A stretch of 64,000 nt of DNA from a virus (taxonomy: Duplodnaviria; Heunggongvirae; Uroviricota; Caudoviricetes): the IMG/VR virus record IMGVR_UViG_3300037424_001372, positions 76,837 to 140,836 of that record, one strand, 5' to 3'. Of this stretch, positions 11,075-64,000 are shown piece by piece (the first letter of the stretch is position 1; every line of letters starts with the position of its first letter). Both the position numbers and the translations under genes were made by a program. The notes beneath the pieces are model-generated. The model did not search any database. It was not told where the DNA came from and worked only from the letters and a program-made list of their open reading frames with translations.

Positions 11075-13489
11075 TCATACTATTCTAAATTCCTTAACCA
11101 AAGCAATTATATCATTTTCATACATCCCCTTAAAAATATAAGCACTTGCATGGTCTTCGACAGCATAAATACTTGCATATTCATCCCATCCATATTCAGT
11201 ATATTCTTGTCCATTTGTGGTAGAACCACTACCAATTCCACCATATAATGGTCTTGGTTTAAGATATTTATATAAACTTAAATTTAATGAGGTGTCAATA
11301 CCTGTTTTAGCAAATATATCGCCTCTAGTATCACCAGTATATTTAATACTATCTGCTTCTTTAAACATACGTGTATCGCCTTTTCTATTCCATAAACCTG
11401 CATTAATACCTTTATATGGAATATTTGCCAATTTATTTAATTCATTAGATGGTAATTGTATGAAAGTCGTTTGAAACGCATCGCCCCTTAATAAATTACG
11501 AGTATTGGTGATGTATGCAAAAATTTTTTGATTATTTTGTGTGACAAAGTGTTCAGAACCATTAGTGGTATCCCAATGATAGACATCTGCGAAACTATAG
11601 TTACGATCTTTACCTGAATCATAGGCCCAAACATATTGTGGGAATATTAAACTGAAGTTTAACCATTGTCCGCCGAAATATCTATTAAATCGAAATTTAT
11701 TGGTTGTTGAATATATACTATTTTCTTGACTACTATTTTTAATGAATTTAACATTATATGGAAAATCATATCTATAAAATAAATCATTTACATCATTAGA
11801 ATATGTTGAACCAGATGTGGTTGGAACCAAATAATTTAAATCATCGGTTGAATCTGATTGTGTAATACTATCATATCCAGATGTTTTAAACCATAAACCT
11901 GCGGTGAATTTAGTATCGTAATAACTAATATCATTTGGAAATACACCAGTAGTGCCCATAGGATCATAGAACATATTTTCGGTATTATCTTTACCAATAC
12001 CATTATTATTAGTTGTTGATTTAACTGGCATAAATTGTGCTACTGCATAAACACTTCCACCGGTAAATGCAAAATATTCTCTTCTCCATTTATTATTATA
12101 TTCGTTAAATGTTAATCCGTCAGTATAGCTATCGCTATTAGTTGTACTATCACTAGCTCTCAATCCAGTACTTTGTGGAAGTTTTAACCAACCTCTAGCT
12201 TTATGTGCCAGATTAGGACCATTAAATTTTTTATCCCATGAATTATTAATTGGCAATTCTTCAAGGTTTGGATATTTAATCAACATCATACCATAAAATC
12301 TTGAAAAAATCCCCAATTCATAATCATCGTCAACAACGATCTCTTCACCCTCTTCATTAATATATGATTTTCGTCTATTACATTGTAGATTAATTAAAAA
12401 ACTGCCATCTTTTTGAACTATAAAATATTCTGATTTATCAACTTCATATATATCTTTATCATAATCAAAATCATTTGGGAATATTAATTGATCATTTATG
12501 TCTATTGGAATTCTATTAGAAAACGTAAATATTCTGATTTCAGGATTACTTACCCTATAAGTCCTTATATCAAGATTATTTCCAAAACCACCTGATTGTG
12601 TGTGCAAAGAATAAAAACCCCTGTCTTCATCATTTGCATCAGGATTACCATATATACCATAACTACCCATTGTCATTGTATTGCCAATAATTATGGTATT
12701 GGAAGTCAATACTGTTTTACTTGTTCTAAAATCTTGTCGGGTTATACCAATTTCAAAATTATCAACATCCCCCCAAAATGGTCTAATATCAACACTAATT
12801 TCCTGAGTTTCGATATTTGGTAAATTATTTAAATCATCACTGGGTTTAATTGAGGTATTATTATCAGTAAAAAGATTTTCGGAATAACCTGCAATAATCA
12901 TACTACTGGGATTCATACTATATTCACCAATATCTGTAATATCCACACTCATATGAATTAATTGTGTTCCAATTGGCAATCCAAAAATCATATAATCACC
13001 AAATTTATTTGTTAATGCAGTATATTTATAATATTTCTTATATACATTAATCAATAAATTATTTCCAAGGACCTCTTCTTTTATTGGAAATGAACCAAAC
13101 GGTTGACTTGGTTTATATGAACCGGTTTCATTGTTTATTTTAGCAACTCGTGGTAATAAATTATATCTCTTACCATTAAGATTTTTATCTCTTGGAGTTT
13201 TATATGGGTAAACACTATAAATTTCAGCATCATTTGCATCTTCATCAGTTAAAGGTATAAAAACACTAATTTTTGTATTAGGAATACCAACACCACCATT
13301 AGCTACAACCCTACCAACTAACACACCATAATCTGAATTAAAATTTTGATAAGCATCCTCTGTTGATATATTCATAGTTAAAAACTCAATTGTCTCAATA
13401 TTTTGTTCGAGCTTAACAACAATATATTTATCTTGATTTTCATTACCAGTACTACCACTATTAAAATAAATTCTTTGTGATTTATTCAT
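11075..13489 (-). CDS. Large virion structural protein with an N-terminal Ig/carboxypeptidase-regulatory-like domain
   Basis: YGVLVGRVVANGGVGIPNTKISVF...TNKFGDYMIFGLPIG. Start set at ATG 13489, just downstream of the late motif at 13512-13505. Confidence 0.55.
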   Translation of the reverse strand: MNKSQRIYFNSGSTGNENQDKYIVVKLEQNIETIEFLTMNISTEDAYQNFNSDYGVLVGRVVANGGVGIPNTKISVFIPLTDEDANDAEIYSVYPYKTPRDKNLNGKRYNLLPRVAKINNETGSYKPSQPFGSFPIKEEVLGNNLLINVYKKYYKYTALTNKFGDYMIFGLPIGTQLIHMSVDITDIGEYSMNPSSMIIAGYSENLFTDNNTSIKPSDDLNNLPNIETQEISVDIRPFWGDVDNFEIGITRQDFRTSKTVLTSNTIIIGNTMTMGSYGIYGNPDANDEDRGFYSLHTQSGGFGNNLDIRTYRVSNPEIRIFTFSNRIPIDINDQLIFPNDFDYDKDIYEVDKSEYFIVQKDGSFLINLQCNRRKSYINEEGEEIVVDDDYELGIFSRFYGMMLIKYPNLEELPINNSWDKKFNGPNLAHKARGWLKLPQSTGLRASDSTTNSDSYTDGLTFNEYNNKWRREYFAFTGGSVYAVAQFMPVKSTTNNNGIGKDNTENMFYDPMGTTGVFPNDISYYDTKFTAGLWFKTSGYDSITQSDSTDDLNYLVPTTSGSTYSNDVNDLFYRYDFPYNVKFIKNSSQENSIYSTTNKFRFNRYFGGQWLNFSLIFPQYVWAYDSGKDRNYSFADVYHWDTTNGSEHFVTQNNQKIFAYITNTRNLLRGDAFQTTFIQLPSNELNKLANIPYKGINAGLWNRKGDTRMFKEADSIKYTGDTRGDIFAKTGIDTSLNLSLYKYLKPRPLYGGIGSGSTTNGQEYTEYGWDEYASIYAVEDHASAYIFKGMYENDIIALVKEFRIV

Positions 13490-13504
13490 ATTTAAATATT
13501 TATT

Positions 13505-13512
13505 ATAAATAC
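13505..13512 (-). promoter_or_regulatory. Putative late promoter GTATTTAT
   Basis: 15 nt upstream of ATG 13489. Confidence 0.65.
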
Positions 13513-13539
13513 TAATATCTAAAAACCGTTTTTTTTTCA

Positions 13540-15534
13540 TTAATATAGTTTTAATGAAAATTTTATCGTTCCACAGTTATAGATTTTATAAATATTATGT
13601 TCGATTAATATTTCGTCAATAGTTTTATTATCATCATACCAACCCAATTCAATAATTCTTTTTTTTCTAAAATTAAATCTATGATATCTCTGTTTTTGAT
13701 TGTTAGCAATATAATAATATGATGGTTTGTTAACATGAACTTCGTTAAAACCAATTTGTTTGTATAAATTACCTTGACTAAATCTTAAATCTGCATATGT
13801 TATAATTTCATGTGGGTTGTATGTTTTAATAAAATATTTTAATAATTTACTCGCACCACCAATAACATGTGTATTAATTTTATTACAAAATCTTGATAAA
13901 TTAAAAAATTTATCAGAATTTTTAGCATTACCCAATCCTTTTCTTGCCGTATCAAAACACATAATTGAAACTAAATCATTATTATAATATAAACCAATTG
14001 AAATTTCAGAAGGAACTGCTCCTTGGACATGATTTAACATTAAGAAATCACTTGTAGTCGATTTATCAATTTCTTTTATGACTGTGTTTCTACCATAAAT
14101 ATTATTTTCAATAATATTTAGTTTTGACTTAATTATTGACTTTATTATTTCTTTTTTATAAATCCATTCATCTTCATAAACATGTAATAATTGAATACCT
14201 TTATTATTACATAAATTTGTTTTATTCAGATGATAATTTTTATCTTTAAATAATTCAGAATGCCAATAAAGACCATTAAATTCAATAGCTAATTTATATT
14301 CTGGAAGATAAAAATCTAATTCTTGTTTGTTATCTAAAATAGATTTATCATTATTAACCAATTTAATATTTAATGACATTAAAAATGATTTTAATTCTAA
14401 TTCAATTATTGATTTATTTTCAGAAACGGGATTACATTTAGTACAAATATTTTCATGTTTATTCCAAATTAATCTACTATATAACAATGATTTGGAAATA
14501 TTAAAATTATCATGTTTTTTACAATAATTATTAATAGTTACATAATCCCCAATAATATCAATATCATTTTGATTTACATTTAATAAATTAGAATATTTTT
14601 TTATAAAATTTAAAATATTGGTTTTTTTAATTTTTAATATTATTTCAGGTGATTTTGAAATATTATCGACACCATATTTTTTTATTGTTGTTTCTTTTGA
14701 TTTTATTCTATTATTAAAATTTTCATCACCATATTTTTCTAATTTTATTTTTTTTACACTTTCTTTAATAACATCGCTCTTCATTGGGTTGTCGACACCA
14801 TATTCTTTTATTAATGTTCTATTTTTTTTTAAACTAAATTCATTAGAATTAAAATAATGTTCAACATCATACTTTTCTTTAACAGTCTTTCTGATTTTGT
14901 TTTTAATCTCATCAGATTTATTAGGATTGTCGACGCCATATTTTTTTAAATTAGTATTTTTGACTATTTCTTTAATAACTTCACTCTTCATTGGATTGTC
15001 GACACCATATTTTTTTAAAAGAGTTTCTTTTTTTTTGTTTTTAACTTCATCTAATTGATTATGACTTTCAACATTGTATTTCAATAAATTAGTTTGTCTT
15101 GTTTTTTCTTTAATAGTTGTAAGTTTTTGAGGGTGCTCAATACCATATCGTCTAATATTGGTTAATTTAATTTTTTCTTTTATTTCATTAGATTGTAAAG
15201 CATATTTTACCCCATTTTTTATTATTGAAGTTTGTTCTCTTTTTCCTTGAACAGTTTTATCTAAACCAAGACATTTCATTGAACAATATGACGAATAACC
15301 TTCACTAAATTTTTTAAATCGAACATCATTTTCACAAATAATACATTTGGGTGGATTAATCATGTCATGAGTAATTAAATATAACATTTCTGAAAATGAA
15401 ATGTTGTTATCTAAAAACGTTTTAATTATCTCGTTATATAAATTAGTATAATATTTTTGAAAATATTCTTTTGTCATTCTTTTTCTATTGATTTTACCTT
15501 CAACAAAAATAATACTATAAATCTTTTCTTTCAT
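13540..15534 (-). CDS. Free-standing endonuclease, paralog B: Zn finger, 9 repeats, Vsr-like nuclease, Mom-like GNAT domain
   Basis: Same architecture as 792-2462 (ELDFYLPEYKLAIEFNGLYWHS; GGASKLL; TYADLRFSQG.LY..IGF). Start set at ATG 15534, downstream of the promoter. Confidence 0.75.
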   Translation of the reverse strand: MKEKIYSIIFVEGKINRKRMTKEYFQKYYTNLYNEIIKTFLDNNISFSEMLYLITHDMINPPKCIICENDVRFKKFSEGYSSYCSMKCLGLDKTVQGKREQTSIIKNGVKYALQSNEIKEKIKLTNIRRYGIEHPQKLTTIKEKTRQTNLLKYNVESHNQLDEVKNKKKETLLKKYGVDNPMKSEVIKEIVKNTNLKKYGVDNPNKSDEIKNKIRKTVKEKYDVEHYFNSNEFSLKKNRTLIKEYGVDNPMKSDVIKESVKKIKLEKYGDENFNNRIKSKETTIKKYGVDNISKSPEIILKIKKTNILNFIKKYSNLLNVNQNDIDIIGDYVTINNYCKKHDNFNISKSLLYSRLIWNKHENICTKCNPVSENKSIIELELKSFLMSLNIKLVNNDKSILDNKQELDFYLPEYKLAIEFNGLYWHSELFKDKNYHLNKTNLCNNKGIQLLHVYEDEWIYKKEIIKSIIKSKLNIIENNIYGRNTVIKEIDKSTTSDFLMLNHVQGAVPSEISIGLYYNNDLVSIMCFDTARKGLGNAKNSDKFFNLSRFCNKINTHVIGGASKLLKYFIKTYNPHEIITYADLRFSQGNLYKQIGFNEVHVNKPSYYYIANNQKQRYHRFNFRKKRIIELGWYDDNKTIDEILIEHNIYKIYNCGTIKFSLKLY
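14620..15228 (-). repeat. Nine coding tandem repeats (8 x 23 aa plus 1 x 19 aa)
   Basis: GTCGAC recurs at 14791, 14929 and 14998 (multiples of 69 bp). Example units: LLKKYGVDNPMKSEVIKEIVKNT, NLKKYGVDNPNKSDEIKNKIRKT. Confidence 0.9.
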
Positions 15535-15553
15535 AATACAATTAATTAGGTTA

Positions 15554-15585
15554 CAAAGATAAATACTTAATCTTTTAATTTCAAA
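15554..15585 (-). promoter_or_regulatory. Nested host-type (TTTG-N20-TATCTTTG) and late-type (GTATTTAT) promoter
   Basis: Minus strand reads GTATTTATCTTTG (15566-15554), with TTTG at 15585-15582. Confidence 0.65.
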
Positions 15586-15717
15586 TAATTTTTTAATTAA
15601 ATTAGAATAATAATTTGAAATTCGATTAAAAATGAAATAAAAAAATATAAAAATTGGATGATTATTGTGGCGGAATCTGAATTGTATCAAATAATTAGTC
15701 TTTTGAATATTTTTCTA

Positions 15718-15782: not shown

Positions 15783-18548
15783 ATGGCAGATTTCGTATTT
15801 ACATCTCCGGGTGTTAAATTTAAAGAAAGAGATATTACTTTTGTAACACGTAATGTTGGTATCACGACATTAGGATTAGCTGGTGAAACATTAAAAGGAC
15901 CTGCTTTTGAACCGGTTTATATTCAAGACCAAACCCAATTTTTAAATAGATTTGGTGGACAAAGTATAAAAAGGTTTCAAAACGGTGAAAAAACATTACA
16001 ATATCAATTACCTTATGTTGCAAATGCTTTTTTGGAAGAAGCTCAACAACTTTGGGTAACTAGAGTACTTGGACTTAGTGGATATAAGGCAGGTAAATCA
16101 TGGAATATTTTATTAGATGCAGGTGTTGATTTATCTACATCAGGTGTTACAGGTTCTCCGGTAACAACAACAGATATTCCATTTACCGGAGCAGCTTATT
16201 TAGGCGTTTCACTTAATGGTATTGGGGTTACTGGTTCAACCGCCACAGGATACACAAAAAATAATAGTATTTTCTATCAAACAGTTCATGAATTCACTGC
16301 TACGACATATACTTCAGGTACTGGTACTGTTACTGATATAACAACAACATATTCAGCAAATTCATTAACAGAATATGAAAATATGGTATTGGCCGTTATT
16401 AGAAGTAGGGCGGTTTCAAATATTCCGATAGATTCAATTGCAGTAACAACACCCATTACAACTGATGTTGAAATTACTCAAAATGATACTTTAATTGATG
16501 CAGGTGATTTATTTGCGACAATTAAATTAGATGTTAATAATACTGATAATAGTTCGATATATTTTGGTACTAATGCAACATATTATGTATCATTAAATCC
16601 AAACGATTCCAACTATTTACCAAATGTTATAGGTCGTGAACCTAAAGATAAGAATACCATGATTTGGGTTCAAGCAATCTATCCAGATTTAATTAGAAAA
16701 CTTGATGCCGATAGCATTGCATATGGTATTAAATCAGAAATGATTGAAACTGATGAAAATAATACATATTTTGCGGATTATGAAGTTGGTTATCAAACAC
16801 CTGAAACTCCTTGGGTAGTATCTCAATTAAAAGGTAATAGTGTTGATAAATTATTTAAATTTATAAGTATTTCGGATGGAGATTCTGCTAATCAAGAAAT
16901 CAAAATTAGTATTGCAAATATTGACCCATATTCATTAGAATTTGATGTGGTTATTCGTGATTTTTATGATACCGATGCAAATGTTTCTGTTTTAGAAACC
17001 TATACAAGATGTAATTTAACCAAAGGTAGTTCAAATTATATTGGTCAACGTATTGGTACTAGTGATGGCGAATATAGTTTAATTAGTAAGTATATAATGG
17101 TAGAAGTTTCCGAAGAATTGGCTAATGATGTATACCCTGCCGGATTTGAGGGTTATTTGTTTAACAATTATTCGACTGAAGTGACCGGTAGTGCTACTGA
17201 AGGTATTTGTCCCGAAATATTTTATAAAACTTCTTATGCCGATACTGATAAGTTAGTGAAAACATATTTAGGTATTTCTGAATTAGCATATACTGGTAAT
17301 GGTATTAATCAAAATTTTTTTAATTTTAATAACTATTATAATGGTCAAACCGCTAGTGGATTTACTAAAACAAAAGGTTTTCACTTAGATTCTGGAGTAA
17401 CTATTATTACTGGAAATACCGAATTTGTTGGTGGTGCAGCAGCATTTAATACTACTGTTGATAGTAATACCACTGGTCCATATTATAACATTAAATCAAG
17501 AAAATTTACATTAGTTCCAGCAGGTGGTTTCGATGGTTGGGATGTAAATAGAACTGAACGTTCTTATGGAGATGATTATGTTCAAGGTGGAAGGAGAAGT
17601 GGACACCCCGGTGAACCATTAGTTGTTCCGACAAATGATTTTCAGGCATGGGAAACAGCTATAGATACTTTTGCTAATCCAGAGGATATTACTATTAACC
17701 TTTTCGCAACCCCCGGAATTGAGTGGGCTAATCAAACAACTTTAGTTCAAAATACTATTGATATGATTGAACAACAAAGAACAGATACTCTATATGTTAT
17801 TGATGCGCCTCAATTAAGCGAAGATTTTCTTTCAACAGTTGGTGATAGTGGTAAGGCAGATGTTTTAGCTGCCACAGAAATTGCCAATTTATTAGAAGAT
17901 ACATCGATAGATAGTAGTTATGCATGTACATACTATCCTTGGATTCAAATGCGCGATACTCAAAACAATGTTAATGTTTATATTCCACCAACTGGTGAAG
18001 TGGTTAAAGCAATGGCATATACTGATAACGTATCATTCCCTTGGTTTGCAGTAGCTGGTCTTAATCGTGGTGTTACTAACGCAAGAAAATCACAATTTAA
18101 ACTTTCTTTGGATGCTCGTGATATTCTTTATGCCGGTCGTGTAAATCCTATGGCAGATTTTGCAAATACTGGAACTGCTATTTTTGGCCAGAAAACACTT
18201 CAAGTTAAAGAAACTGCACTTGATAGGATCAATGTTCGTAGATTATTATTGCAAATCAAAGTGTTGATTTCAAATATTGCAGTTAGATTGTTATTCGAAC
18301 AAAATGACCAAGCGACTATCGACCAATTCTTAAATAAAGCAAATCCTATTCTTGATAGTATTAAACGTGAGAGAGGTTTAACTGATTTTAGAATAAAAAT
18401 GGATAGTAGTAATAACACCCCTGAAACTCGCGATAGAAACGAATTGTATGGTGAAATCTTCTTAAAACCAACTCGTTCGGTAGAATTTATTGGAATTACA
18501 TTCACGATAACGCCATCAGGAGCAAATTTTGCTGATGCAGGTGCTTAA
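15783..18548 (+). CDS. Tail sheath protein (T4 gp18-like)
   Basis: N-terminal SPGVKFKERD; C-terminal YYPWIQ..., PWFAVAGLNRG, VNP, FGQKTL, RINVRRLL, LFEQND, KPTRSVEFIGITF. Confidence 0.95.
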   Translation: MADFVFTSPGVKFKERDITFVTRNVGITTLGLAGETLKGPAFEPVYIQDQTQFLNRFGGQSIKRFQNGEKTLQYQLPYVANAFLEEAQQLWVTRVLGLSGYKAGKSWNILLDAGVDLSTSGVTGSPVTTTDIPFTGAAYLGVSLNGIGVTGSTATGYTKNNSIFYQTVHEFTATTYTSGTGTVTDITTTYSANSLTEYENMVLAVIRSRAVSNIPIDSIAVTTPITTDVEITQNDTLIDAGDLFATIKLDVNNTDNSSIYFGTNATYYVSLNPNDSNYLPNVIGREPKDKNTMIWVQAIYPDLIRKLDADSIAYGIKSEMIETDENNTYFADYEVGYQTPETPWVVSQLKGNSVDKLFKFISISDGDSANQEIKISIANIDPYSLEFDVVIRDFYDTDANVSVLETYTRCNLTKGSSNYIGQRIGTSDGEYSLISKYIMVEVSEELANDVYPAGFEGYLFNNYSTEVTGSATEGICPEIFYKTSYADTDKLVKTYLGISELAYTGNGINQNFFNFNNYYNGQTASGFTKTKGFHLDSGVTIITGNTEFVGGAAAFNTTVDSNTTGPYYNIKSRKFTLVPAGGFDGWDVNRTERSYGDDYVQGGRRSGHPGEPLVVPTNDFQAWETAIDTFANPEDITINLFATPGIEWANQTTLVQNTIDMIEQQRTDTLYVIDAPQLSEDFLSTVGDSGKADVLAATEIANLLEDTSIDSSYACTYYPWIQMRDTQNNVNVYIPPTGEVVKAMAYTDNVSFPWFAVAGLNRGVTNARKSQFKLSLDARDILYAGRVNPMADFANTGTAIFGQKTLQVKETALDRINVRRLLLQIKVLISNIAVRLLFEQNDQATIDQFLNKANPILDSIKRERGLTDFRIKMDSSNNTPETRDRNELYGEIFLKPTRSVEFIGITFTITPSGANFADAGA

Positions 18549-18595: not shown

Positions 18596-20137
18596 CTATA
18601 ATATTAATTCATATTTAAAATTACCACAATCATAAATTCTAGGTATTTTTCTATCTAACATTATTTCATGTTCGGATTTATTTAAATCAAAGCCCTCTTG
18701 AATTAAGTTACTTTTTCTAAAATTAAATCGATGTTTACGTTGTTTATTTATTACATAAAAATAATTTGGTGGTGTAATCTTTGTTTGTTTAAAATTTAAT
18801 TTTTCATATAAATTACCGTTTGAATATCTTCTATTCGCATATGTAATAATTTTATTTGGTTTATTTTTTTTTATAAAAAAATCTAATAATTTAGATGCTC
18901 CTCCAATAACAGAAGTATTTAACTTATTACAAAATCTCAATAATTCATAATCATTTAAATTTGATTTTGAGCCTAAAATATTTCTTAAATTACCGAAAGT
19001 CATTATCGAAACTAATTCATTATTATATAATAATCCAATATTATATTTACCATTAACATTTCCTTGAATATGATTTTTTTCTAAAAAATCTTTGGTAGTA
19101 ATATTATCGATATAAGTGATTTCACATTTTCGGGCAAATATTTTAATTTTTGTTAAATTTAATTTATTTAATATTATGGATTCAACAATATTAAATTTTT
19201 CAATAATTTCGTCTTCAAAAAATTGTAATAAATCATAATTAATGTCATTACATTTATTTAGTTTATTTATATGATAATGTTTATCAACATAATATTCTGA
19301 ATGCCAATGTAATCCATTAATTTCAATTCCAATATTTTTTTCAGGAATTAAAATATCGATTTCAAGATTTTTTAACAGTTTTCTATCATTAGCAATATAA
19401 TTCACATTATTAATATTAAGAAAATTACCTATTTTTAATTCTAATGTTGATTTGGGTGCAGAAACCGGTAATAATATTGTCGATAATTCAACATTATGAT
19501 TTAAACGATTAACTAATAACTTTCTATGATTTTCAAAAATATGTCCATCTGGATGTTGAATTTTAATATTATCATTATTAAAGTCAATTATTTTATAATT
19601 GATTTCTGCAAACCTTTGTATTAGATTTAAATTTCTTTTATTAATTATTGTTGCACGTGCTTTTTTTATTGAATCATGATTATTGTGTTTTATTTTATTT
19701 TGAATCGATTTTAATTTAAACAATGAATCAACACCATATTTTAACATCAAAGATTCTTTGCTTTTTTGTATTCTATTATTTTTATTTTCAATATTATTAT
19801 TCCAAATATTCCTACATAAAATTGAACAAAATTTTTTATCGTATTTTATCCTTTCTTTAAATTCATTTCCACATATTAAACAAATTCTATTCTCAGTACT
19901 ATTAACATGTTTAGCCTCTCCAGAACATTTATATGAACAATATTTTTTATTTTCTTTTATTTTAGATTTAAACAATTTACTACAATTTTGACATTCTTTC
20001 ATTTCAAAGAAAATTTCGTCTTTTTTTAATCTAAATTGTTTTTTACATTCATTAGAACAAGTTTTTTTTTCTTTTCCTTTTCTAACTTCAAAAGATTTGC
20101 CACAATTTTCACATATCATATTTACAATAACTGCCAT
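18596..20137 (-). CDS. Free-standing endonuclease, paralog C: 3 CxxC...CSxxC Zn fingers, 1 repeat, Vsr-like nuclease, Mom-like GNAT domain
   Basis: CENC..TCSNEC, CQNC..YCSYKC, CLIC..FCSILC; KYGVDSLFK; EIDILIPEKNIGIEINGLHWHS; GNAT motifs as in the other paralogs. Confidence 0.75.
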   Translation of the reverse strand: MAVIVNMICENCGKSFEVRKGKEKKTCSNECKKQFRLKKDEIFFEMKECQNCSKLFKSKIKENKKYCSYKCSGEAKHVNSTENRICLICGNEFKERIKYDKKFCSILCRNIWNNNIENKNNRIQKSKESLMLKYGVDSLFKLKSIQNKIKHNNHDSIKKARATIINKRNLNLIQRFAEINYKIIDFNNDNIKIQHPDGHIFENHRKLLVNRLNHNVELSTILLPVSAPKSTLELKIGNFLNINNVNYIANDRKLLKNLEIDILIPEKNIGIEINGLHWHSEYYVDKHYHINKLNKCNDINYDLLQFFEDEIIEKFNIVESIILNKLNLTKIKIFARKCEITYIDNITTKDFLEKNHIQGNVNGKYNIGLLYNNELVSIMTFGNLRNILGSKSNLNDYELLRFCNKLNTSVIGGASKLLDFFIKKNKPNKIITYANRRYSNGNLYEKLNFKQTKITPPNYFYVINKQRKHRFNFRKSNLIQEGFDLNKSEHEIMLDRKIPRIYDCGNFKYELIL

Positions 20138-24574: not shown

Positions 24575-24580
24575 TTAATA

Positions 24581-24967
24581 TTAATTTTTAAATTTCTTTT
24601 TTTCTAATTCATTTTGAACCATTGACAATAATTCATTTCTTCTATCAGTACTAACATCACCGGATGATTCACCACTATTATTGGTATTTGAATTATTGGG
24701 GTTATTGTTGGTACCATCAAAAACAACCTCTTTTAAATACTTTAACAACATTATTTTTTGATCTTGGTTTTTAGCTGCTGCTGCAATTAATTTAACAACT
24801 TGATCGCCAATAGCTGCGATCTCACCACCTTCTTTAACTTTATTTTCCCATTTAGTAAATAGTCTTGTAATAATTGCTTTAATGTTATGAGATTCATTGT
24901 AAATTTCTTGTAATAATTCATTTACACTATGTTCATCAAACATTATTTTTTTTCGGGTTGGTCTCAT
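24581..24967 (-). CDS. Helical protein, possibly terminase small subunit-like
   Basis: Two long amphipathic helices and a flexible tail, as in T4 gp16-type proteins; weak similarity by eye only. Confidence 0.3.
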   Translation of the reverse strand: MRPTRKKIMFDEHSVNELLQEIYNESHNIKAIITRLFTKWENKVKEGGEIAAIGDQVVKLIAAAAKNQDQKIMLLKYLKEVVFDGTNNNPNNSNTNNSGESSGDVSTDRRNELLSMVQNELEKKKFKN

Positions 24968-25053
24968 ATGTTAAAATTTATTTCCTTTTGTTTATTATCT
25001 ATAGTAAATTCAGAATACTCTTTTTTAAAATTACAACAAATACAAATTTTCAT
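24964..25053 (-). pseudogene. 29-codon mini-ORF, probable relic of a Zn-ribbon endonuclease N-terminus
   Basis: MKICICCNFKKEYSEFTIDNKQKEINFNI*. ATGA overlap with the 24967 gene; starts 19 nt below a late motif. Confidence 0.4.
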
Positions 25054-25072
25054 TTCAATTGTTTTAGTACAT

Positions 25073-25080: not shown

Positions 25081-25157
25081 TATTTAATTATTTTTATTAA
25101 AAATGATTAAATGTGTTGCTTAATATTGATTGTTTTAATAATAGTTAAATAAAAATA

Positions 25158-50294: not shown

Positions 50295-50325
50295 CAAAAA
50301 AGACTACTATGAGTAGTCTTTTTTG
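50295..50325 (+). terminator. Rho-independent terminator
   Basis: CAAAAAAGACTACT-ATG-AGTAGTCTTTTTTG. Confidence 0.8.
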
Positions 50326-50332
50326 TTTGAGA

Positions 50333-50340
50333 GTATTTAT
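50333..50340 (+). promoter_or_regulatory. Putative late promoter GTATTTAT
   Basis: 15 nt upstream of ATG 50356. Confidence 0.65.
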
Positions 50341-50355
50341 ATTAAAATATTATAT

Positions 50356-56326: not shown

Positions 56327-59300
56327 ATGAGCGAATTAAGTGATAATACATTAACAGCATATTTAGGACCTGAATTTCAACAACGTTTAATATGGCAATT
56401 ATTAGTTGAACCCGAATTTGCTGAAAAAGCCATTAGAAATATCGCTATCGAGTATTTTGATGATCCTAATCTTAAAAGATTATTCATTATAATGTTGGAA
56501 TATTATAAGGAGTTTGATAAAGTCCCTAATCTCCAAAATCAAAGTATTCATCAAGCAATTAATAAATATAAAACACCAAATAATATTGTTGAAGAAGAAT
56601 CCTTGTTTTCTATTATCAAGCGTATTGAAATGTGGAATGAAAGGATTATTAATAAACAAATGCTTTATGATGGTGATGTTGTGCAGAAATCAACGAACTC
56701 ATTTGTTAAGCAACAAGAATATAGGAAATTAGCTGAAAATGTACTTGAAAAAGTTAGAAATGGTGAAATAAAAAATAAGAATATTATTGCCGGCATTGAA
56801 GAAAAATTTCAGAAAATATCACATATTGGCGAAGAAAGTGATGATTCTGAATCTGTCACCGAAGGAATTTCAAAAGCATTGAGGAAAGAATTTCGTGAAA
56901 CAATACCAACCGGTGTTGAAACTATTGATGTTTTAACTGGTGGTGGATTGGGTAAGGGTGAAATGGGTATCGTATTAACCCCTTCGGGAGTGGGAAAAGC
57001 ATTACCAGTATCTGCAAAACTTTTAACTCCAAATGGATGGATATTAAATGGAAATGTTAAAATAGATGATTTAGTAATTGGTAGTGATGGTAAGCCTCAA
57101 AAAGTTTTAGGTGTTTATCCACAAGGTAAGCGACAGATATATAAAATTCTATTTAATGATAATACTATTGCTTATTGTGATTATGAACATATTTGGTCAG
57201 TTAATTCTCTAAATCAGAGAACAGCAAACACTACTAAACATATTAATGGTAATATTATTCATGAAAAAAGACCTGATAATTCATATAAGAATAAAACTAC
57301 TGGTGAATTATTAAAAGATTATATTATTAATAATAAATCTGGAAAAAAATTAAATTACAGAATACCTATTGTTAAACCAATACATTTTAACAATATTGAA
57401 ACATCAATACATCCTTATATAATGGGTGTTATGTTAGGTGATGGATATATGAGAGCAGGTGAATTTACTACTTCTGATGTTGAAATTATTGATAATGTAA
57501 AAAAATTTTATAATAATATTACTGTTAATAAAGATAAAAGAACTAATAATGTATTCAGGGTAAGATTATGTAATTCTATAAATGATTTGAAAAAATATGA
57601 TTTATTTGATAGAAAATCAAATAATAAATTCATACCTGATGTTTATAAATATAATTCGATTGAGAATAGAATATTATTATTAAATGGTTTATTAGACACT
57701 GACGGTTTTGCTTCAAAAAATGGTCGTGTTCAATATACTACAACTTCTGAGCAATTAGCATCAGATGTTAGAGAATTAGTATTGTCATTAGGTGGATTTT
57801 GTAAAATTAAAACAAAAATACCAAAATATAAATATTTAAATAATATTAAATCAGGTAAGCAAATATTTACATTAACAATATCGTTCACTGATGAAAATAT
57901 TGAAATTTTTAAATTAAATAGAAAACAATGCCTTGTTAAATATTGTAGTAAATATAAAAATAATAAATATATTTCATCAATAGAATATTCCCATGATGAA
58001 GATGCATTGTGTATATATGTTGAAAATGATGACCATTTATATGTGACTGATGATTATATATTAACCCACAATACTACATTATTAACTGTTATAGCTAATA
58101 CTGCTTATGAACATGAAAAGAATGTTGCTCAAATTATTTTCGAAGACACTAAAGACCAAATTAAACGTAAACATTATACTATTTGGGCTAAATCTGCTTT
58201 AAGTAGACTTAATGAAGATGGTGAAAATGAAAGGGTTATTAAGGTTGTTAATGAAAAAATAAAACAATTAGAAGGTAAGGGGAGGTTAATAATTAAAAGA
58301 TTTAGTCAAGAAGATACTACAATGCGAGATATTCGGAATTGGATGATATCTTATGAGAAAAAATGGGGATTTAAATTTGATTTATTGGTATTGGATTATC
58401 TTGATTGTGTTGAATCACATAAAAATACGCAAGATAGAAATGAATCAGAACTTACTGTTGTTAAAGCTTTTGAAGCATTGGCATCTGATTTTAATATACC
58501 TGCATGGACTGCTATTCAAACAAACAGAACTGGATTTGGTTCTGAATTTATTGAAGCGCATCAAAGCGGTGGTAATATTAAAAGGATTCAAAAAGCACAT
58601 TTCTTCATGTCAGTTGCTAAAACAAAAGAACAACAAGAAGCGCATTTAGCAAATATTAGAATCATTAAGGCTCGATTTGCAAAGGATGGACAAGGTTTTG
58701 AGGATTGTGTTTATAATAATGATACTATTGAAATCAGAATTGATGATCCTAAATATAAATATTCTAAAACATATAAAGGCTTGAAACATCATAATGAATC
58801 TGATATAGATAATTTAGATAGTTCATTAAATAAAATTCATCTTGCAGTAAGTGATTATTCAGAAAAATCAATTATTGATAAAGTAAATAATTATGATTTA
58901 ATAAATGAATTGCTTCATCAAAATAGTTTACCTGAAAAAGTCAAAGATTTAACAATTAAAAACGATATTAACACTAAATTTGTTAATATTGATGAGACTT
59001 TTGATGTTATAAATGATGAATTTAATAATAACGATAACGAAACTTCATCTAATTTATTGGATATCGAAAATAATATTCAATCCGACATTAAGATAATTGA
59101 TGAAGATGTTGTTGAATTTGAATTACCAATAAATAATATTGTTGAAGAATCTAATTTTATTTTACCTAAAACAATTGTTGTCGAATCATCAATAAATAAC
59201 GCAATAAGCGATAATATTGACGATATTATGAATTTAATAAATTTAACTGATCCAGATGAACATCAGGATGAATATAAAACAATATTTAATGAATTAGAAA

Positions 59301-59335
59301 AAAAACGTAGTCATCAGAAAATTATAAAAGATTAA
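56327..59335 (+). CDS. dnaB: Replicative DNA helicase (DnaB/T4 gp41-like), intein-containing
   Basis: IPTG...D...GGGL..GE, Walker A PSGVGK|T split by the intein, LLVLDYLD, WTAIQTNR, IIKARF. Confidence 0.92.
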   Translation: MSELSDNTLTAYLGPEFQQRLIWQLLVEPEFAEKAIRNIAIEYFDDPNLKRLFIIMLEYYKEFDKVPNLQNQSIHQAINKYKTPNNIVEEESLFSIIKRIEMWNERIINKQMLYDGDVVQKSTNSFVKQQEYRKLAENVLEKVRNGEIKNKNIIAGIEEKFQKISHIGEESDDSESVTEGISKALRKEFRETIPTGVETIDVLTGGGLGKGEMGIVLTPSGVGKALPVSAKLLTPNGWILNGNVKIDDLVIGSDGKPQKVLGVYPQGKRQIYKILFNDNTIAYCDYEHIWSVNSLNQRTANTTKHINGNIIHEKRPDNSYKNKTTGELLKDYIINNKSGKKLNYRIPIVKPIHFNNIETSIHPYIMGVMLGDGYMRAGEFTTSDVEIIDNVKKFYNNITVNKDKRTNNVFRVRLCNSINDLKKYDLFDRKSNNKFIPDVYKYNSIENRILLLNGLLDTDGFASKNGRVQYTTTSEQLASDVRELVLSLGGFCKIKTKIPKYKYLNNIKSGKQIFTLTISFTDENIEIFKLNRKQCLVKYCSKYKNNKYISSIEYSHDEDALCIYVENDDHLYVTDDYILTHNTTLLTVIANTAYEHEKNVAQIIFEDTKDQIKRKHYTIWAKSALSRLNEDGENERVIKVVNEKIKQLEGKGRLIIKRFSQEDTTMRDIRNWMISYEKKWGFKFDLLVLDYLDCVESHKNTQDRNESELTVVKAFEALASDFNIPAWTAIQTNRTGFGSEFIEAHQSGGNIKRIQKAHFFMSVAKTKEQQEAHLANIRIIKARFAKDGQGFEDCVYNNDTIEIRIDDPKYKYSKTYKGLKHHNESDIDNLDSSLNKIHLAVSDYSEKSIIDKVNNYDLINELLHQNSLPEKVKDLTIKNDINTKFVNIDETFDVINDEFNNNDNETSSNLLDIENNIQSDIKIIDEDVVEFELPINNIVEESNFILPKTIVVESSINNAISDNIDDIMNLINLTDPDEHQDEYKTIFNELEKKRSHQKIIKD
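56999..58072 (+). mobile_element. Class 3 intein (358 aa) with a LAGLIDADG homing endonuclease
   Basis: Starts ALPVSAKLLTPNGW (Ala1); block B HIW; LAGLIDADG motifs MGVMLGDG and LNGLLDTDG; block F ALCIYV; ends ILTHN|T. Confidence 0.9.
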
Positions 59336-59532: not shown

Positions 59533-60648
59533 ATGTGTGCATTTTTTAGTCGCCCTAATTTAGATGATGTTCAATTTAAACAAATCGATGGAAGTATTTT
59601 AAGTTTATCTGGACAAACTCGAATATTATCACCAACAGGTTTAACATTAATTGGTGATGGTAATATTAACATTCCTATAATTGCTACTGGTGCATCTAAT
59701 AATTATGTGTTAACTTATGACGATATTAGCGATCCATCGCAACCTGTGATTAGATTAAAAGAATCTAGTGGTAGTGGTGGGACTGGTAGTTATGGTTATA
59801 CTGATTTAACCACATGTTCTGTTGGTGGATTAGGTGTTGATCAATGTTTATATGGTAATTCGTTGGAAAGTATTATTCATTGTATGGTTTCACCAGCATT
59901 AAATCCCACTTTATCAGCACCTACGGCATCATTTTCAATAAATCCTTCTACAACTGTTTATGAGGTTGGTCATGTTGTTAATATTACTGGTACCACTACA
60001 TTTAATCAAGGTTGTATTAATCCACAATATACTTCAATATGTGATAAAAGAAGTAATGGGACATTATCTTATGTTTATTCAGCATTTTCATTTCCATATT
60101 CATGTTCTTACAATAATAATTCTAACACAATGCCATTCTCACCAATACAATTGAATGGAATAAACTCATATACTATTTGTTCAACAGTTAATTATTGTGC
60201 TGGTGTCCAACCTAAAAATAGTACCGGTGGTAATTATGATAATCCATTGACTGCCGGGAATATTATTAATACTAGAACAATTTGTACAATACTACCTTGG
60301 TATTGGGGTAAAAGCGTTAATAAAACAATAACATGTTCTTGTGTTATAAATGGTTGTAGTTGTAAATGTTTAGGTAATGCTAGCGGTAGTATTCCTATTT
60401 GTTTTAATAGTACTGCTAATGATTATTTATGGTTCGCAATACCGTCTGGAACGGATAATAAAACATGTTGGTTTGTAAATGGTACTAATAACGGTGCTAT
60501 TTCAGGGTTAGCCGGTCAAACATGGGCATTATCATGTCCAATTACAGTTTCATCATTACAAGGTTGTTGGTCAAATTGTACATATAATGTTTATGTTACT
60601 TGTTTACAAACTGGAACTGACCCTAACGTTCCAATGTATTTTTATTAA
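59533..60648 (+). CDS. Cys-rich virion structural (fibre/decoration) protein
   Basis: S/T/G-rich beta composition; 21 Cys counted in 371 aa. Confidence 0.55.
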   Translation: MCAFFSRPNLDDVQFKQIDGSILSLSGQTRILSPTGLTLIGDGNINIPIIATGASNNYVLTYDDISDPSQPVIRLKESSGSGGTGSYGYTDLTTCSVGGLGVDQCLYGNSLESIIHCMVSPALNPTLSAPTASFSINPSTTVYEVGHVVNITGTTTFNQGCINPQYTSICDKRSNGTLSYVYSAFSFPYSCSYNNNSNTMPFSPIQLNGINSYTICSTVNYCAGVQPKNSTGGNYDNPLTAGNIINTRTICTILPWYWGKSVNKTITCSCVINGCSCKCLGNASGSIPICFNSTANDYLWFAIPSGTDNKTCWFVNGTNNGAISGLAGQTWALSCPITVSSLQGCWSNCTYNVYVTCLQTGTDPNVPMYFY

Positions 60649-60674: not shown

Positions 60675-62909
60675 ATGTCAATAATTATTAATGATAACTT
60701 CGCAGTTAACGTAGGTAAACCAGTCGATAGTAAATATTTAAATGTTACAACACCTTGGACTTCTGTCAGTGCTGTACAAAATGGCATACCTGCATCATAT
60801 CGATATATTGGATTAACTGTAAATATAAATGGTGTTGAATATTGGTGGAAATCTAGTACTTCTAACGATAATTTAATTGAAAAGGTTTATACAGGCGGTA
60901 CTTCTGGAAATGTTAATTATATTAGTGGTGCAACTAATTTAGGTTTTTTTAGTGGTAAGACAGGTGCGCAATCATTAGTTTTAAGTGGCTTTGCTAGCTC
61001 ACCAATTGATTTTAACGATACTTATTATTCAGCATATAATAATTATTATGTAGATAATAATGGAATAATTACTATTGGAAGGCCTACTGCAGATGGACCT
61101 TATAGACGTGCATATGTTAATGCATCAAAAACTGCATCATGGATATATAGTAACACATATGGTACTTCAGGTGGTTGGGTTATTAGTTATAATGATGTAA
61201 CCACTAATGTTGGTTCAAGCGTCAATCTTGTTTCATATGATGGAACTGCTTATGATGAATATTATTGGGACAATGATATTGATAATGATTTCTATACTAA
61301 TGGATATACAAGTGTATTAGTATATGGCTCGTTAAATACCGGCGATACTTTAGTAATCGGTAACCCAATTTATAATAATACTACATACCAACGTTTAAAT
61401 TTAAGAACAATAAAATCAATAACGCCTGAATTTTTAAATGTTGATTATGATGATAATTTTATTAATTTTTCAGGTATATCATCAATAACTAATGCACAAA
61501 ATTTTGGTACAGGTATCGGTGTTTATAGTGGTCAAAGTGGTAGTATTTTAGGATTTAGAACTTTAGTTGGTAGCGGTGATACATTAATTACAACTGATTC
61601 TACTGGAGATATTGTTATTTTTAGTAGTTCTAATGGTAGTACTGATACAATAACTGGTGCAACTAATAATGGTGGTGGTGTCGAAATATATAACGAAAAC
61701 ACTGATAGAAATTTACAATTCAATACTTTGATAGGTAGTGGAGATACTACTGTCACTAAAGTTGGTAATCAAGTAATCATTAATTCCCAAGGTGGTGGTG
61801 TGTTTGCTTCTGACATTCTAGTGAGTATCGCTGCCGGTAAAACATTTGGTAAATATATAAATGGTGACGTAATTCCTGCCAGTGGTAAAACTGCTGATCA
61901 AGTAATTCAAATGGCATTATCCGAAGCATTGACCCCAACAGTTAATTTAGGTTCATCTACAACAAATGTTGTGTTTGGATTAGATAGTAAGACTGTAAAT
62001 GTTACATTTTCATATAGCATTAATACTGTTGGAGCATCGGTTGCAACAACATTACTTGAATGGAGAAGAGGTAATACTGGGTCATGGAGCGGATTAACAA
62101 CAAATACTGGTGCAACATCATATTTTCTTACAGTTGATGATACGGTAAATAGATTTAATACTGCAGTTATTAATTTACGTTATACTGTTACAGACACTGC
62201 TGGTGCAACCAAGACAGTTACATATGATGTAATACCACAAGCATATGTAGCACCGACAATAACACCGACATATGTCGCATCAGGTTTGCAAAGCTATGAA
62301 ACACAAACAATTAGAGAGGTTGGTAATGTTAATACAACAATTGCTGGTGGTATTAGTTCAAATCGTACTTATGTTAACATACTTTCATATGAAATACAAC
62401 GAAATGATGGTAGTGGATATGTGACAATTGCAAGTGAAAATAATATTAATTCATTATCAACATTAATTATATCTTATTTAGATGATGAATCATCCCTTAC
62501 CTCAACAACAATTTCATATAGGATCGTTGTTACTGACGAATATCAAACTACAACTAGTTCAGTATATGTAATTAATTTAAGATTTGCTTCATATTATGGA
62601 TATAACTCAAATACTGTATTAACAAGTGCACAAATTGTTGGATTACATAATGAAGTATTATTGATATCAAAAATAAGAACATTAAGTTCAGTGACTGCAA
62701 CAGCTAGTCAATATACTTATATTTCATATCCATCTTCTTTTGGTGATTTAAGTAATATTATTTTAGATGGTTCTGCACCTGTATTAGGTGCATTTACTAA
62801 GTTAAGTGATGTCATCGTGACTAATTATTATGGTCAGACTGTGACAAATAGTGTTTATAAAAGTAATGCATTAGGAGCATTTACAAATAATACATTGGCA
62901 TTATCATAA
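60675..62909 (+). CDS. Tail fibre/virion structural protein
   Basis: RYIGLTV...EYWWK; repeated 'TN.G.G...Y.......L.F.TL.GSGDT' fibre units; Ig-like C-terminal domains. Confidence 0.65.
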   Translation: MSIIINDNFAVNVGKPVDSKYLNVTTPWTSVSAVQNGIPASYRYIGLTVNINGVEYWWKSSTSNDNLIEKVYTGGTSGNVNYISGATNLGFFSGKTGAQSLVLSGFASSPIDFNDTYYSAYNNYYVDNNGIITIGRPTADGPYRRAYVNASKTASWIYSNTYGTSGGWVISYNDVTTNVGSSVNLVSYDGTAYDEYYWDNDIDNDFYTNGYTSVLVYGSLNTGDTLVIGNPIYNNTTYQRLNLRTIKSITPEFLNVDYDDNFINFSGISSITNAQNFGTGIGVYSGQSGSILGFRTLVGSGDTLITTDSTGDIVIFSSSNGSTDTITGATNNGGGVEIYNENTDRNLQFNTLIGSGDTTVTKVGNQVIINSQGGGVFASDILVSIAAGKTFGKYINGDVIPASGKTADQVIQMALSEALTPTVNLGSSTTNVVFGLDSKTVNVTFSYSINTVGASVATTLLEWRRGNTGSWSGLTTNTGATSYFLTVDDTVNRFNTAVINLRYTVTDTAGATKTVTYDVIPQAYVAPTITPTYVASGLQSYETQTIREVGNVNTTIAGGISSNRTYVNILSYEIQRNDGSGYVTIASENNINSLSTLIISYLDDESSLTSTTISYRIVVTDEYQTTTSSVYVINLRFASYYGYNSNTVLTSAQIVGLHNEVLLISKIRTLSSVTATASQYTYISYPSSFGDLSNIILDGSAPVLGAFTKLSDVIVTNYYGQTVTNSVYKSNALGAFTNNTLALS

Positions 62910-62933
62910 TATTAAAAATAAATTTATAAAAAC

Positions 62934-64000
62934 ATGGCAATTAAAAGACCTGATATATATGAACATAATAACCCAGTAAATGCTTTTGCAGATAGTAATT
63001 TTATTAGAGGTGGATTTAGAAGTGGTGTTACTGATTTATCTGAATTATATGCGTTATCTGGATATACTGACCAATTAAAAGAACATTCAACAGTTGTTTA
63101 TGTTAGTGGTGATACTAAATATTATATTTTAATTGATAATAATAATATTGGCAATAGCAATGGTTGGAATGAATTCAAATCTAGTGATAGTGGCACTGTT
63201 TCAGGAGCTACCAATGGTTTGACATTGAACAACGGTATTGTTTCACTTGGAGGTACATTGACTAGTAACACTACAATCAATGGTGATGGGCAAACATTTA
63301 CTATTTCAAATATTAATGAATTTCAAGTTAATACTAGTGGTAATAGTACAATATTAGGTATTGATAAAGAAGGTTTAATATTTTCTTTTTCAGGTGGTTC
63401 AATTACAATGGACGATAACGGTGGATTAAAATATGGTGGTGATTATAGTAATTATTATACATCTTCATCAATACCAAGTGTTGGATATTTAACAGGATAT
63501 ACTTCAGGAAATTATTTAAAATTAGATCAAACAACATCTCAAGATATTTGTAACGGTCAACCAATTTTCCATGAAGGAATTATTTTAGACCCAAATCCTT
63601 TAACATCATCAATAACCGGTCATACTAAAGGTAGAATGTATTATGATGATAATTATGAGACTATAAGTGTTGATATTGGTGATGACAGTACTCTTCAATT
63701 AGGTCAAGAAAGTGTTAGATATGTTTACAATGCCACTGGAAACGTAATACCTAACGGTTCATTAGTATATAATAATGGTGTTCATAGTGGTAGTGGTGTT
63801 GATACAGTTACAATTGGATTATCAATTGCTACCGGCATTACAGAAGCATCTGTAATTGGAATTACTACCCAAGATATACAAATAAATGATTTTGGTTTTA
63901 TAACAACACAAGGTAATGTTAATAAACTTGATACTATTAATGGACAATTTACTAATGTTAATGTTGGTGATGAACTTTATTTGTCCTCAACTGTTGCTGG
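62934..64000 (+). CDS. Tail fibre/virion structural protein, 3'-truncated by the window (not in the ORF track)
   Basis: Open frame from ATG 62934 (MAIKRPDIYEHNNP...SGATNGLTL..G.VSLGGTLT..T.I...LQLGQE) to the window end. Confidence 0.7.
   Translation, partial: MAIKRPDIYEHNNPVNAFADSNFIRGGFRSGVTDLSELYALSGYTDQLKEHSTVVYVSGDTKYYILIDNNNIGNSNGWNEFKSSDSGTVSGATNGLTLNNGIVSLGGTLTSNTTINGDGQTFTISNINEFQVNTSGNSTILGIDKEGLIFSFSGGSITMDDNGGLKYGGDYSNYYTSSSIPSVGYLTGYTSGNYLKLDQTTSQDICNGQPIFHEGIILDPNPLTSSITGHTKGRMYYDDNYETISVDIGDDSTLQLGQESVRYVYNATGNVIPNGSLVYNNGVHSGSGVDTVTIGLSIATGITEASVIGITTQDIQINDFGFITTQGNVNKLDTINGQFTNVNVGDELYLSSTVA

Follow-up and report, generated by a model that had tools for sequence, protein, structure and literature searches.

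A hydrophobic-[ST]-G-x-T motif in outward-facing tail proteins of a clade of large uncultured phages: a candidate O-glycosylation sequon

This study concerns a 64,000-nucleotide stretch of DNA, hereafter the 'window' (G000:C1:76837-140836), taken from a 324,744-bp IMG/VR phage record (IMGVR_UViG_3300037424_001372) that is rated complete and has a G+C content of ~26–28%; and, in the tail proteins of this phage, a short motif, hydrophobic-[ST]-G-x-T, that may serve as a glycosylation sequon. Across the clade to which the phage belongs, the four-residue core of the motif, [ST]GxT, is five to thirteen times as frequent as expected by chance in outward-facing tail proteins, and in these only. The first-pass annotation of the window had proposed the looser pattern [ST]Gx[ST] as such a sequon on the basis of hand counts (12, 9, 6, 5, 5, 4 and 3 per protein), all of which we reproduce by translating the 57 non-overlapping open reading frames (ORFs) of the window and counting the pattern against 2000 composition-preserving shuffles per protein; the excess persists under every composition control. 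Throughout, coordinates are window positions unless prefixed by a genome (G000–G006, G000 being the genome under study) or an L-number, and motif positions are numbered from the candidate acceptor: Ser/Thr is 0, Gly +1, x +2, Thr +3 and the preceding residue −1.

A four-residue motif and the proteins that carry it

Taking the G000 genome as a whole, [ST]Gx[ST] occurs 211 times against 98 expected. The fibre cluster (59533 to G000 157478) holds 101 of the genome's 144 [ST]GxT sites, where 18.6–21 are expected whether the sequences are shuffled globally or in blocks of 40, 20 or 10 amino acids (aa), an excess of ~5-fold; in the same set [ST]GxS, with 27 sites against 20.3–22.4, is at expectation. 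This is also apparent from the position profile, Thr being found at +3 after 45% of fibre [ST]G dipeptides (4.2-fold) and Ser at background. The pattern as first drawn is real and compact, the enriched word within it being [ST]GxT and not [ST]GxS (27 against 22). Forms with a single mismatch are depleted ([^ST]GxT 0.82x; [ST]Gx[^ST] 0.73x), indicating that both ends of the motif are needed, and at +1 Gly is enriched 5.4x and Ala weakly (1.9x), with no other residue able to take its place. Adding a hydrophobic residue at −1 gives 66 sites in the fibre set against 6.8 expected (z = 22.7).

A logo of 531 sites, pooled over five clade genomes, divides position 0 between Ser (49%) and Thr (51%), leaves x unconstrained (40% hydrophobic, equal to background) and, among the flanks, singles out only −1 (hydrophobic in 61% against a background of 41%); it fits what is looked for in a sequon-type signal, in which a few fixed residues include a hydroxyl acceptor, x can vary and the flanks are hardly constrained. 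The refined motif is hydrophobic-[ST]-G-x-T, narrower than [ST]Gx[ST].

The carriers are S/T/G-rich (S+T 21–25%, G 9–13%) and the motif was originally picked by eye; both would suit an artefact of chance, low-complexity composition, a repeated DNA word or post hoc selection. We nevertheless hold such an origin to be highly improbable: the 5-fold excess survives shuffling in blocks as small as 10 aa; an unbiased scan of all ab.c words places TG.T and SG.T at the top for the fibres, after words derived from YadA repeats, and first outright for the six other carriers; codon use at the sites is diverse, which points to selection or a signal at the level of protein; and the excess is replicated in four other genomes and in protein families of 120 and 52 members. 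Block shuffles, codon diversity and the unbiased word scan lead us to reject the composition, DNA-word and post hoc readings. Also rejected were a collagen-like G-x-T periodicity (G.TG.T, 1 against 0.9 expected) and the Bacteroidota O-glycosylation sequon D-[ST]-[AILVMT] (37 against 27 in the carriers, z = 2.0); N-x-[ST] shows no excess in the same proteins (171 against 163).

The whole of the excess is held by 13 tail-type proteins: seven from the fibre cluster, the sheath, a 626-aa protein (G000 40477-42357), a 1594-aa protein (G000 184057-188841) and the ORFs beginning at 11075, 23243 and 50323. In the other 390 proteins (81,015 aa) there are 22 [ST]GxT sites against 24 expected, and proteins of at least 450 aa are distributed bimodally, having either 4–26 sites or practically none. 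Carriers and internal controls are listed here, with observed counts set against those expected.

11075-13540, minus strand: unassigned 821-aa protein adjoining the sheath gene; [ST]Gx[ST] 5 against 1.3, [ST]GxT 4 against 0.7
15783-18548, plus strand: tail sheath (PHROG tail sheath, 3e-63); [ST]Gx[ST] 6 against 2.2, all within residues 120–546
23243-24574, minus strand: 443-aa protein at the end of a conserved block holding a GT2-like gene; 3 motifs against 0.76
50323-51759, plus strand: conserved but unassigned 478-aa protein; 4 of 6 [ST]G dipeptides continue as [ST]Gx[ST], against 0.57
59533-60648, plus strand: S/T/G-rich 371-aa protein with which the fibre cluster starts; [ST]Gx[ST] 5 against 1.7, [ST]GxT 4 against 0.7
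60675-62909, plus strand: 744-aa fibre-like protein, the richest carrier wholly within the window; [ST]Gx[ST] 12 against 4.2, [ST]GxT 10 against 2.2
62934-64000, plus strand: the 5' third of the gene for a fibre-like protein of 1108 aa (G000 139770-143096); 9 of 14 [ST]G dipeptides form the motif, against 2.1
G000 40477-42357 (L014:2477-4357), minus strand, outside the window: 626-aa protein resembling carbohydrate-binding modules (CBM-like); 10 motifs against 0.7, the highest density in the genome
20524-21021, plus strand, internal control: tail tube (PHROG tail tube, 1.6e-27); 0 motifs
30395-32914, plus strand, internal control: Gly-rich tape-measure-like protein; 9 [ST]G dipeptides, 0 motifs against 1.5

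The 744-aa protein has no match among Pfam or PHROG families; it has its first 90 aa in common with three giant paralogues downstream, and a full-length relative (44% identity) on L005. Next to it, the complete 1108-aa protein, which opens a cluster of fibre paralogues reaching G000 157478, contains 20 [ST]GxT sites against 3.8. Orthologues of 59533-60648 adjoin fibres in G001–G003, three sites of 50323-51759 are kept in all four complete genomes, and both 23243-24574 and 11075-13540 have counterparts in G001–G003 and G006, most site positions of 11075-13540 not being kept. The negative controls first put forward also stand, the motif being absent from the tube and from all nine [ST]G dipeptides of the tape-measure-like protein as well as from the eight of DnaB, with the single match in RecA being its Walker A (TGKS). 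The carriers are tail proteins, external or plausibly external; the tube, the tape-measure-like protein and the sheath core are without the motif.

Relatives, fibre modules and predicted structures

The collection of cultured phages contains no close relative of this phage, the best match to its sheath coming from Microcystis phage Mel-JY01 (35% identity), and no relative of the fibres, of the fibre module described below, or of the glycosyltransferases (GTs) at 26040-26849 and 38950-39636. A search of IMG/VR with the sheath returned 65 loci at 44–91% identity. From these we compared three complete relatives, fetched whole (G001–G003; 328–365 kb each; sheath identity 61–63% over the best tblastn segment, 65–66% over a full-length protein alignment), along with a 91-kb fragment of a relative with 44% sheath identity (G006), taking T4, Mel-JY01, LR756508.1 and Flavobacterium phage immuto as outgroups. 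Genome-wide counts of [ST]GxT, against expectation, are as follows.

G001: 96 against 45
G002: 189 against 62
G003: 216 against 60
G006 (91-kb fragment): 64 against 14
T4: 36 against 26.5 (1.36x); gp34 0 against 2.0, sheath 0 against 0.8
Mel-JY01: 40 against 40.2 (1.0x)
LR756508.1 (484 kb): 78 against 54.2 (1.4x); no enriched fibre
Flavobacterium phage immuto: 89 against 51.7

As in G000, there is no excess of [ST]GxS in G001, G002, G003 or G006. The excess is thus clade-wide, and neither fibres nor sheaths show it in general.

We identify the cluster as fibres on three grounds: an N-terminal domain common to its paralogues, the YadA-head repeats and head-decoration-like domain of the 1982-aa protein, and a module of ~50 residues. 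The last of these, NGL...V.LGG.LTGNT.I (more fully, ..NGL.K.G..V.LGG.LTGNT.I.G..), is found in 1080 representative proteins. It corresponds to no Pfam family and no solved structure, and occurs (for example at L013:4385-4564) in up to 30 copies per protein, in proteins of up to 5546 aa. Motif contexts that recur in paralogous modules include V.LGG.L[ST]G[ND]T, [ST]G[AV]TNGL and LQQVTDSGNTTTNS...SGSTATGTTSF; indeed ~80% of the excess in G000 lies within such modules, typified by V.LGG.LTGNT.I. Repeats cannot, however, account for the carriers present in single copy, the sheath and the CBM-like family among them.

Across 927 copies of the module, position 0 is Thr in 77% and Ser in 7%, +3 is Thr in 93%, and +1 is Gly in 51%, the remaining 49% having Gln, Glu, Ala or Lys. 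In certain fibres that carry the module, the sequence outside it shows no excess (4 against 5.0 and 12 against 17.8, for instance), and the Gly fraction of the modules correlates with the excess outside them (rho = 0.29, p = 4e-4). The replacement of Gly in 49% of copies and the existence of motif-poor module fibres indicate that the fold tolerates its loss; the full motif acts as an overlay at the level of the lineage. Searching for related loci with two motif-poor module-bearing fibres (P0140 and P0166) yielded no usable independent lineage, and sequence searches of the PDB found no match for the fibre or for the fibre-module profile.

Downstream of the window, the fibres of 1982 and 978 aa contain 14-residue SHAEG....ASG.S repeats, matching Pfam YadA_head at 1e-16; for the 1982-aa protein, which also has a head-decoration-like domain, the score is 61 bits against a cut-off of 25. 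These are the YadA-head (Hep_Hag) beta-roll repeats of trimeric adhesins, of the same 14-residue length, and they explain most instances of SGxS, a form that is not enriched overall; the [ST]GxT form does not occur in them. The giant fibres at L013:7229-13177 and L013:14542-17478 (G000 147229-157478) further display repeated blocks, LQQVTDSGNTTTNSV..GNSGSTATGTTSFANG and EIGVGTGTTARCNAFE, and many conserved Cys residues following the LTGNT turn (T.ICG).

In the sheath, the motif is confined to the insertion region. For 52 sheaths of the clade, this region (approximately residues 100–550) averages 5.96 sites per protein against 1.49 expected from shuffles in 15-aa blocks, and the core has 0 against 0.37. 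The sites are scattered over 50 alignment columns, none of which is universal (the commonest is occupied in 34 of 52 sheaths, and many are singletons): sites turn over while their density stays ~4-fold above expectation. Where a column is recurrent, and with the other two motif residues in place, position 0 is Ser/Thr in 94–95% (Val/Ile at most 3%, Asp/Asn ~1%), +1 is Gly in 87–92% and Ala in 6–9%, and +3 is Thr in 75–94% and Ser in 2–10%. An AlphaFold2 model built from the family alignment (mean predicted local distance difference test score, pLDDT, of 60; 78–93 in the insertion domains) matches T4 gp18, the inserted domains of which form the outer surface of the tail. The Mel-JY01 sheath is without most of the motif-bearing insertion, so that no positional comparison with it is possible.

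The CBM-like protein belongs to a 703-member uncharacterised family, and the 120 listed members average 11.2 sites against 0.87 expected. Its model (AlphaFold2, mean pLDDT 63) resembles CBM4/16/22 jelly rolls and the accessory domains of phage tailspikes; the PDB gave no match by sequence. Its C-terminus is LamG-like, and the first 200 residues, although highly conserved, have a pLDDT below 50 in the model.

In the two models (mean pLDDT 60–63), [ST]-G-x lies in a loop, with Thr(+3) at or beside the start of the next beta-strand, at ~8 of the 13 confidently modelled sites; the others are found inside strands or where strands end. The motif does not depend on fold, occurring in CBM-like jelly rolls, sheath insertion domains and fibre modules. 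A capped turn would be expected to exchange Ser/Thr with Asp/Asn and to favour Asn, Asp, Ser or Thr as its second residue, which is not what we see: Asp/Asn account for ~1% at position 0, and x is 40% hydrophobic, as in the background.

Glycosyltransferases and a variable sugar island

Two GTs, both encoded in the window, are conserved across the clade, and beside one of them lies an island of sugar genes, the content of which differs from genome to genome.

26040-26849, minus strand: clade-conserved GT of the GT-A type (GT2-like), inside the tail/baseplate block; candidate reader of the motif, assigned from orthologues and Atlas
38950-39636, plus strand: Glyco_tranf_2_5 GT (PF13712, 5e-26) at the unchanging end of the sugar island, adjoining baseplate genes; second candidate reader
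39633-45736, plus strand: G000-specific sugar island of seven genes (five small ORFs, a reductase/C-methyltransferase fusion and a Methyltransf_24 enzyme), among them the four that follow
39633-40394, plus strand: DUF4422/GT-like protein by Atlas structural neighbours, a lead only
41784-42461, plus strand: Galactosyl_T (Pfam)
43188-45110, plus strand: RmlD-type reductase fused to a nucleoside-diphosphate-hexose C-methyltransferase (Pfam)
45113-45736, plus strand: Methyltransf_24 enzyme (Pfam)
38950-46368 (G001 23291-34337; G002 133519-144297; G003 118327-130203): hypervariable island between conserved flanks, within the structural module

The first GT is below threshold for Pfam GT2, with orthologues above the cut-off; Atlas places it in a virus-only GT2 family, and it has an invariant FDDE (DxD). 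Its orthologues are present in G001–G003 and G006 and absent from T4, Mel-JY01, immuto and LR756508. The second has orthologues in G001–G003 at ~1e-100. The conserved GT is present on no fewer than 477 IMG/VR contigs; a profile search with it found members of the clade only, and PDB sequence searches gave no match for either enzyme. In G001 the Glyco_tranf_2_5 orthologue (34341-35846; L089:14341-15846) is 501 aa long, twice the length of that in G000. Since 39633-40394 has as its Atlas structural neighbour a 476-aa viral protein of the Glyco_tranf_2_5 family, there may be a form in which two GTs are fused.

Genome-wide, all five genomes with the 26040-family GT have a 2.1–4.5x excess of the motif, and all four without it lie at 1.0–1.7x. 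All of the carriers belong to a single clade.

None of the seven island genes has a homologue in G001–G003, where only 38950, 26040 and flanking genes are conserved. The slot between 38950 and the homologue of 45706 is occupied in those genomes by several GT2 genes and by DegT, UDP-GlcNAc 2-epimerase, FkbM, PfkB and GT9-like genes, the GT9-like gene being found in the G001 island only. The island is mosaic: G000 shares none of its seven genes with any other genome, and G001 and G003 share 8 of 13. No hydrophobic span is present in any of the 51 island proteins, which implies that they include no flippase, polymerase or membrane-bound initiating transferase.

Against this background, the sugar reductase and methyltransferase genes described previously are confirmed by Pfam, and the figure of about eight GT-like proteins is verified in part: 38950-39636 and 41784-42461 are upheld by Pfam, 26040-26849 by its orthologues and Atlas, 39633-40394 is a lead, and three small island ORFs have no GT support (comparing a thin GT2-like profile by hhalign with the four island ORFs that lack annotation gave no match). 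The suggestion that the glycan is methylated cannot hold for the clade at large, given that the genes for it are private to G000 and that three complete relatives, in which the fusion gene, the methyltransferase gene and all five small ORFs are missing, maintain the density of the motif. By the same token, any reader of a sequon would be one of the two clade-conserved GTs and not a product of the island.

We also considered DNA as the substrate. The ThyA of G000 scores above the equivalog cut-off and is the sole Thymidylat_synt member, a dUTPase is present, and a search for C5-cytosine methyltransferases found no match in G000, the control genomes responding; we therefore see no route to glycosylation of DNA through hydroxymethyl-pyrimidines. 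A search with Pfam Tet_JBP, to which the controls gave no response, carries no weight as regards TET/JBP enzymes.

Three large HNH/homing-endonuclease genes (13540-15690, minus strand; 18596-20137, minus strand; 37026-38909, plus strand; PHROG 3339/559; DUF7487) border the sheath gene and the sugar island, with six homologues in LR756508.1. Elsewhere in the window, the DnaB-like helicase (56327-59335, plus strand) is 1002 aa long and its middle (residues ~215–590) resembles PHROGs that are annotated as terminase, primase or helicase loader; its length and split helicase matches suggest an inserted element such as an intein.

A sequon, a turn or another signal

Our preferred, if tentative, interpretation (to which we assign a probability of roughly 0.4) is that the motif is a glycosylation sequon: the jumbo phages of this abundant environmental clade would O-glycosylate the outer face of their tails at hydrophobic-[ST]-G-x-T, read by a conserved phage GT-A. 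As we envisage it, the motif would be a short, self-contained, acceptor-type tag in a clade of uncultured phages of ~325–365 kb, placed in the outer domains of the sheath, the fibre paralogues, the CBM-like protein and a few proteins of the baseplate region; in the tag, the Ser/Thr of position 0 would be presented by a tight turn immediately ahead of a beta-strand that starts with Thr(+3). One of the two soluble GT-As kept by the clade (26040-26849 or 38950-39636) would O-glycosylate this Ser/Thr in the cytoplasm, and the adjacent island, variable between genomes and shuffled horizontally, would supply sugars to the glycan and extend it, making it strain-specific. In G000 the glycan would probably include a reduced deoxy-sugar, methylated on carbon or oxygen.

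Beta-helix adhesins of the AIDA-I/TibA type are O-heptosylated in the cytoplasm at acceptors within a strand-loop-strand arrangement, by enzymes of the BAHT family acting on 19-residue repeats with no four-residue sequon; the likeness would be that of a soluble GT acting on Ser/Thr in the short inter-strand loops of a fibrous surface protein, ahead of its export or assembly. To our knowledge, proof of virion glycosylation is limited to giant eukaryotic viruses and a small number of mycobacteriophages, and we know of no peptide sequon in any phage. The first-pass annotation knew of no such system in jumbo phages; our full-text literature searches returned no paper that links an O-glycosylation sequon with a tail protein of a phage, and phage virion glycosylation was cited in them for mycobacteriophages only. 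In Che8-type mycobacteriophages, following the account given of that work (Freeman et al. 2023, via PMC12619734), the glycans are on the C-terminal tails of the capsid and tail-tube subunits; as in our genomes, GT genes lie beside structural genes, their products there decorating virion proteins made in the cytoplasm. The difference is one of location: here the tube has no motif, capsid candidates have 0–2, and the sites are internal turns of the outer sheath domains and of the fibres.

The nearest precedent for the sequon itself is the atypical N-T-x-T of Vp54 from chlorovirus PBCV-1, served by soluble cytoplasmic machinery that the virus encodes (PMC9614988): likewise a four-residue site with the acceptor at 0 and Thr at +3, kept among relatives, it differs in having an Asn acceptor in the capsid of a eukaryotic virus, where our motif has a putative Ser/Thr acceptor, Gly at +1 and a place in a phage tail. 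For the island, the closest parallel is provided by the clade-specific glycogene clusters of Mimivirus and the Megavirinae, which build fibril glycans with rare bacterial-like sugars, some aminated or methylated (PMC9614988). These too are nucleotide-sugar and GT clusters that vary in content and keep their place in the genome; they belong to giant eukaryotic viruses and have no defined peptide motif, and here the island is mosaic even between phages at 60–65% sheath identity. The GT clusters of DNA-hypermodifying phages, which make 5-hydroxymethylcytosine-linked glycans, are similarly soluble, variable in content and sometimes adjacent to structural genes, but they need a cytosine methyltransferase and a TET-like oxygenase, or else a hydroxymethylase (bioRxiv 10.1101/2023.12.21.572611), and G000 has a canonical ThyA, a dUTPase and no match for a C5-methyltransferase.

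Several observations weigh against a sequon. The capsid, the largest surface of the virion, is not enriched (proteins of the capsid region have 0–2 motifs each), so that of the solvent-exposed virion surfaces originally envisaged only those of the external tail proteins apply. The mycobacteriophage sites, as reported, are in C-terminal tails of capsid and tube and not in internal turns. The association between GT and motif, attractive as it is, comes from five related genomes of one clade and counts as one evolutionary event, and GT2 genes are present too in Mel-JY01 and immuto, both without a strong excess. The marked preference for Thr over Ser at +3, the hydrophobic −1 and the loop-to-strand location are features to be expected of a structural strand cap, just as the invariance of most sites in the CBM-like family is to be expected of core structural residues; and in the fibre modules Thr(0) and Thr(+3) stay 84% (as Ser/Thr) and 93% conserved even where Gly is replaced. 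Finally, the case is made from motif statistics, predicted models and gene content, and it is from these that we infer that the residue is modified, by which enzyme, at which acceptor and with what glycan.

The same observations lend themselves to a structural idiom, in which a tight turn followed by a Thr starting the next beta-strand has been multiplied along with the beta-rich tail modules of the clade, the GTs acting elsewhere. We regard this as almost as probable as a sequon. It would account for the placing of [ST]-G-x in a loop with Thr(+3) as the first or second residue of a strand (~8 of 13 confident sites in two AlphaFold models), for the hydrophobic −1 (61% against 41%), for the choice of Thr over Ser at +3 and for what looks like a backbone requirement at +1 (Gly, weakly Ala, and nothing else), in addition to the ~80% of the G000 excess found in paralogous modules, the conserved Thr residues of the 927 module copies and the CBM-like sites, most of them invariant. 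It sits poorly with a motif that is at expectation in the 390 other proteins of G000 and in the fibres and sheaths of T4, Mel-JY01 and LR756508, that is carried by at least three unrelated folds, and that leaves x and its flanks free to vary; positions 0 and +3 almost never hold Asp/Asn, which commonly stand in for Ser/Thr in turns capped by a side chain, or Val/Ile, better strand formers, sheath sites turn over with their density kept, and homologous modules fold without the Gly.

A logo that is compact and admits only hydroxyl residues at position 0, in a motif specific to one clade and to 13 of its tail proteins, would equally suit some other trans-acting reader (phosphorylation, acylation, nucleotidylation or an assembly chaperone) or a weak glycan-binding patch of paired hydroxyls, with the GT island serving host-surface or small-molecule chemistry; that one motif-rich protein has CBM-like domains adds to this. 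We consider it unlikely: in the conserved tail block, albeit with no systematic search, we saw no candidate kinase or other Ser/Thr-modifying enzyme, the two GT-As being the only conserved enzymes seen. A small share of our belief is kept for explanations that we have not thought of.

Should the motif prove to be a glycosylation sequon, glycosylated virion surfaces would become predictable from sequence across hundreds of metagenomic phages, and the presence of a variable sugar island inside a tail module would be accounted for. The motif and its enzyme would make up a minimal, portable pair for cytoplasmic O-glycosylation, and the system as a whole would be a phage counterpart of the diversity of O-antigens and flagellin glycans and of sequon-directed glycosylation in chloroviruses. 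Should it instead be structural, it would still provide a sharp, clade-restricted turn signature, marking the outward-facing tail proteins of phages in which most structural genes lack annotation.

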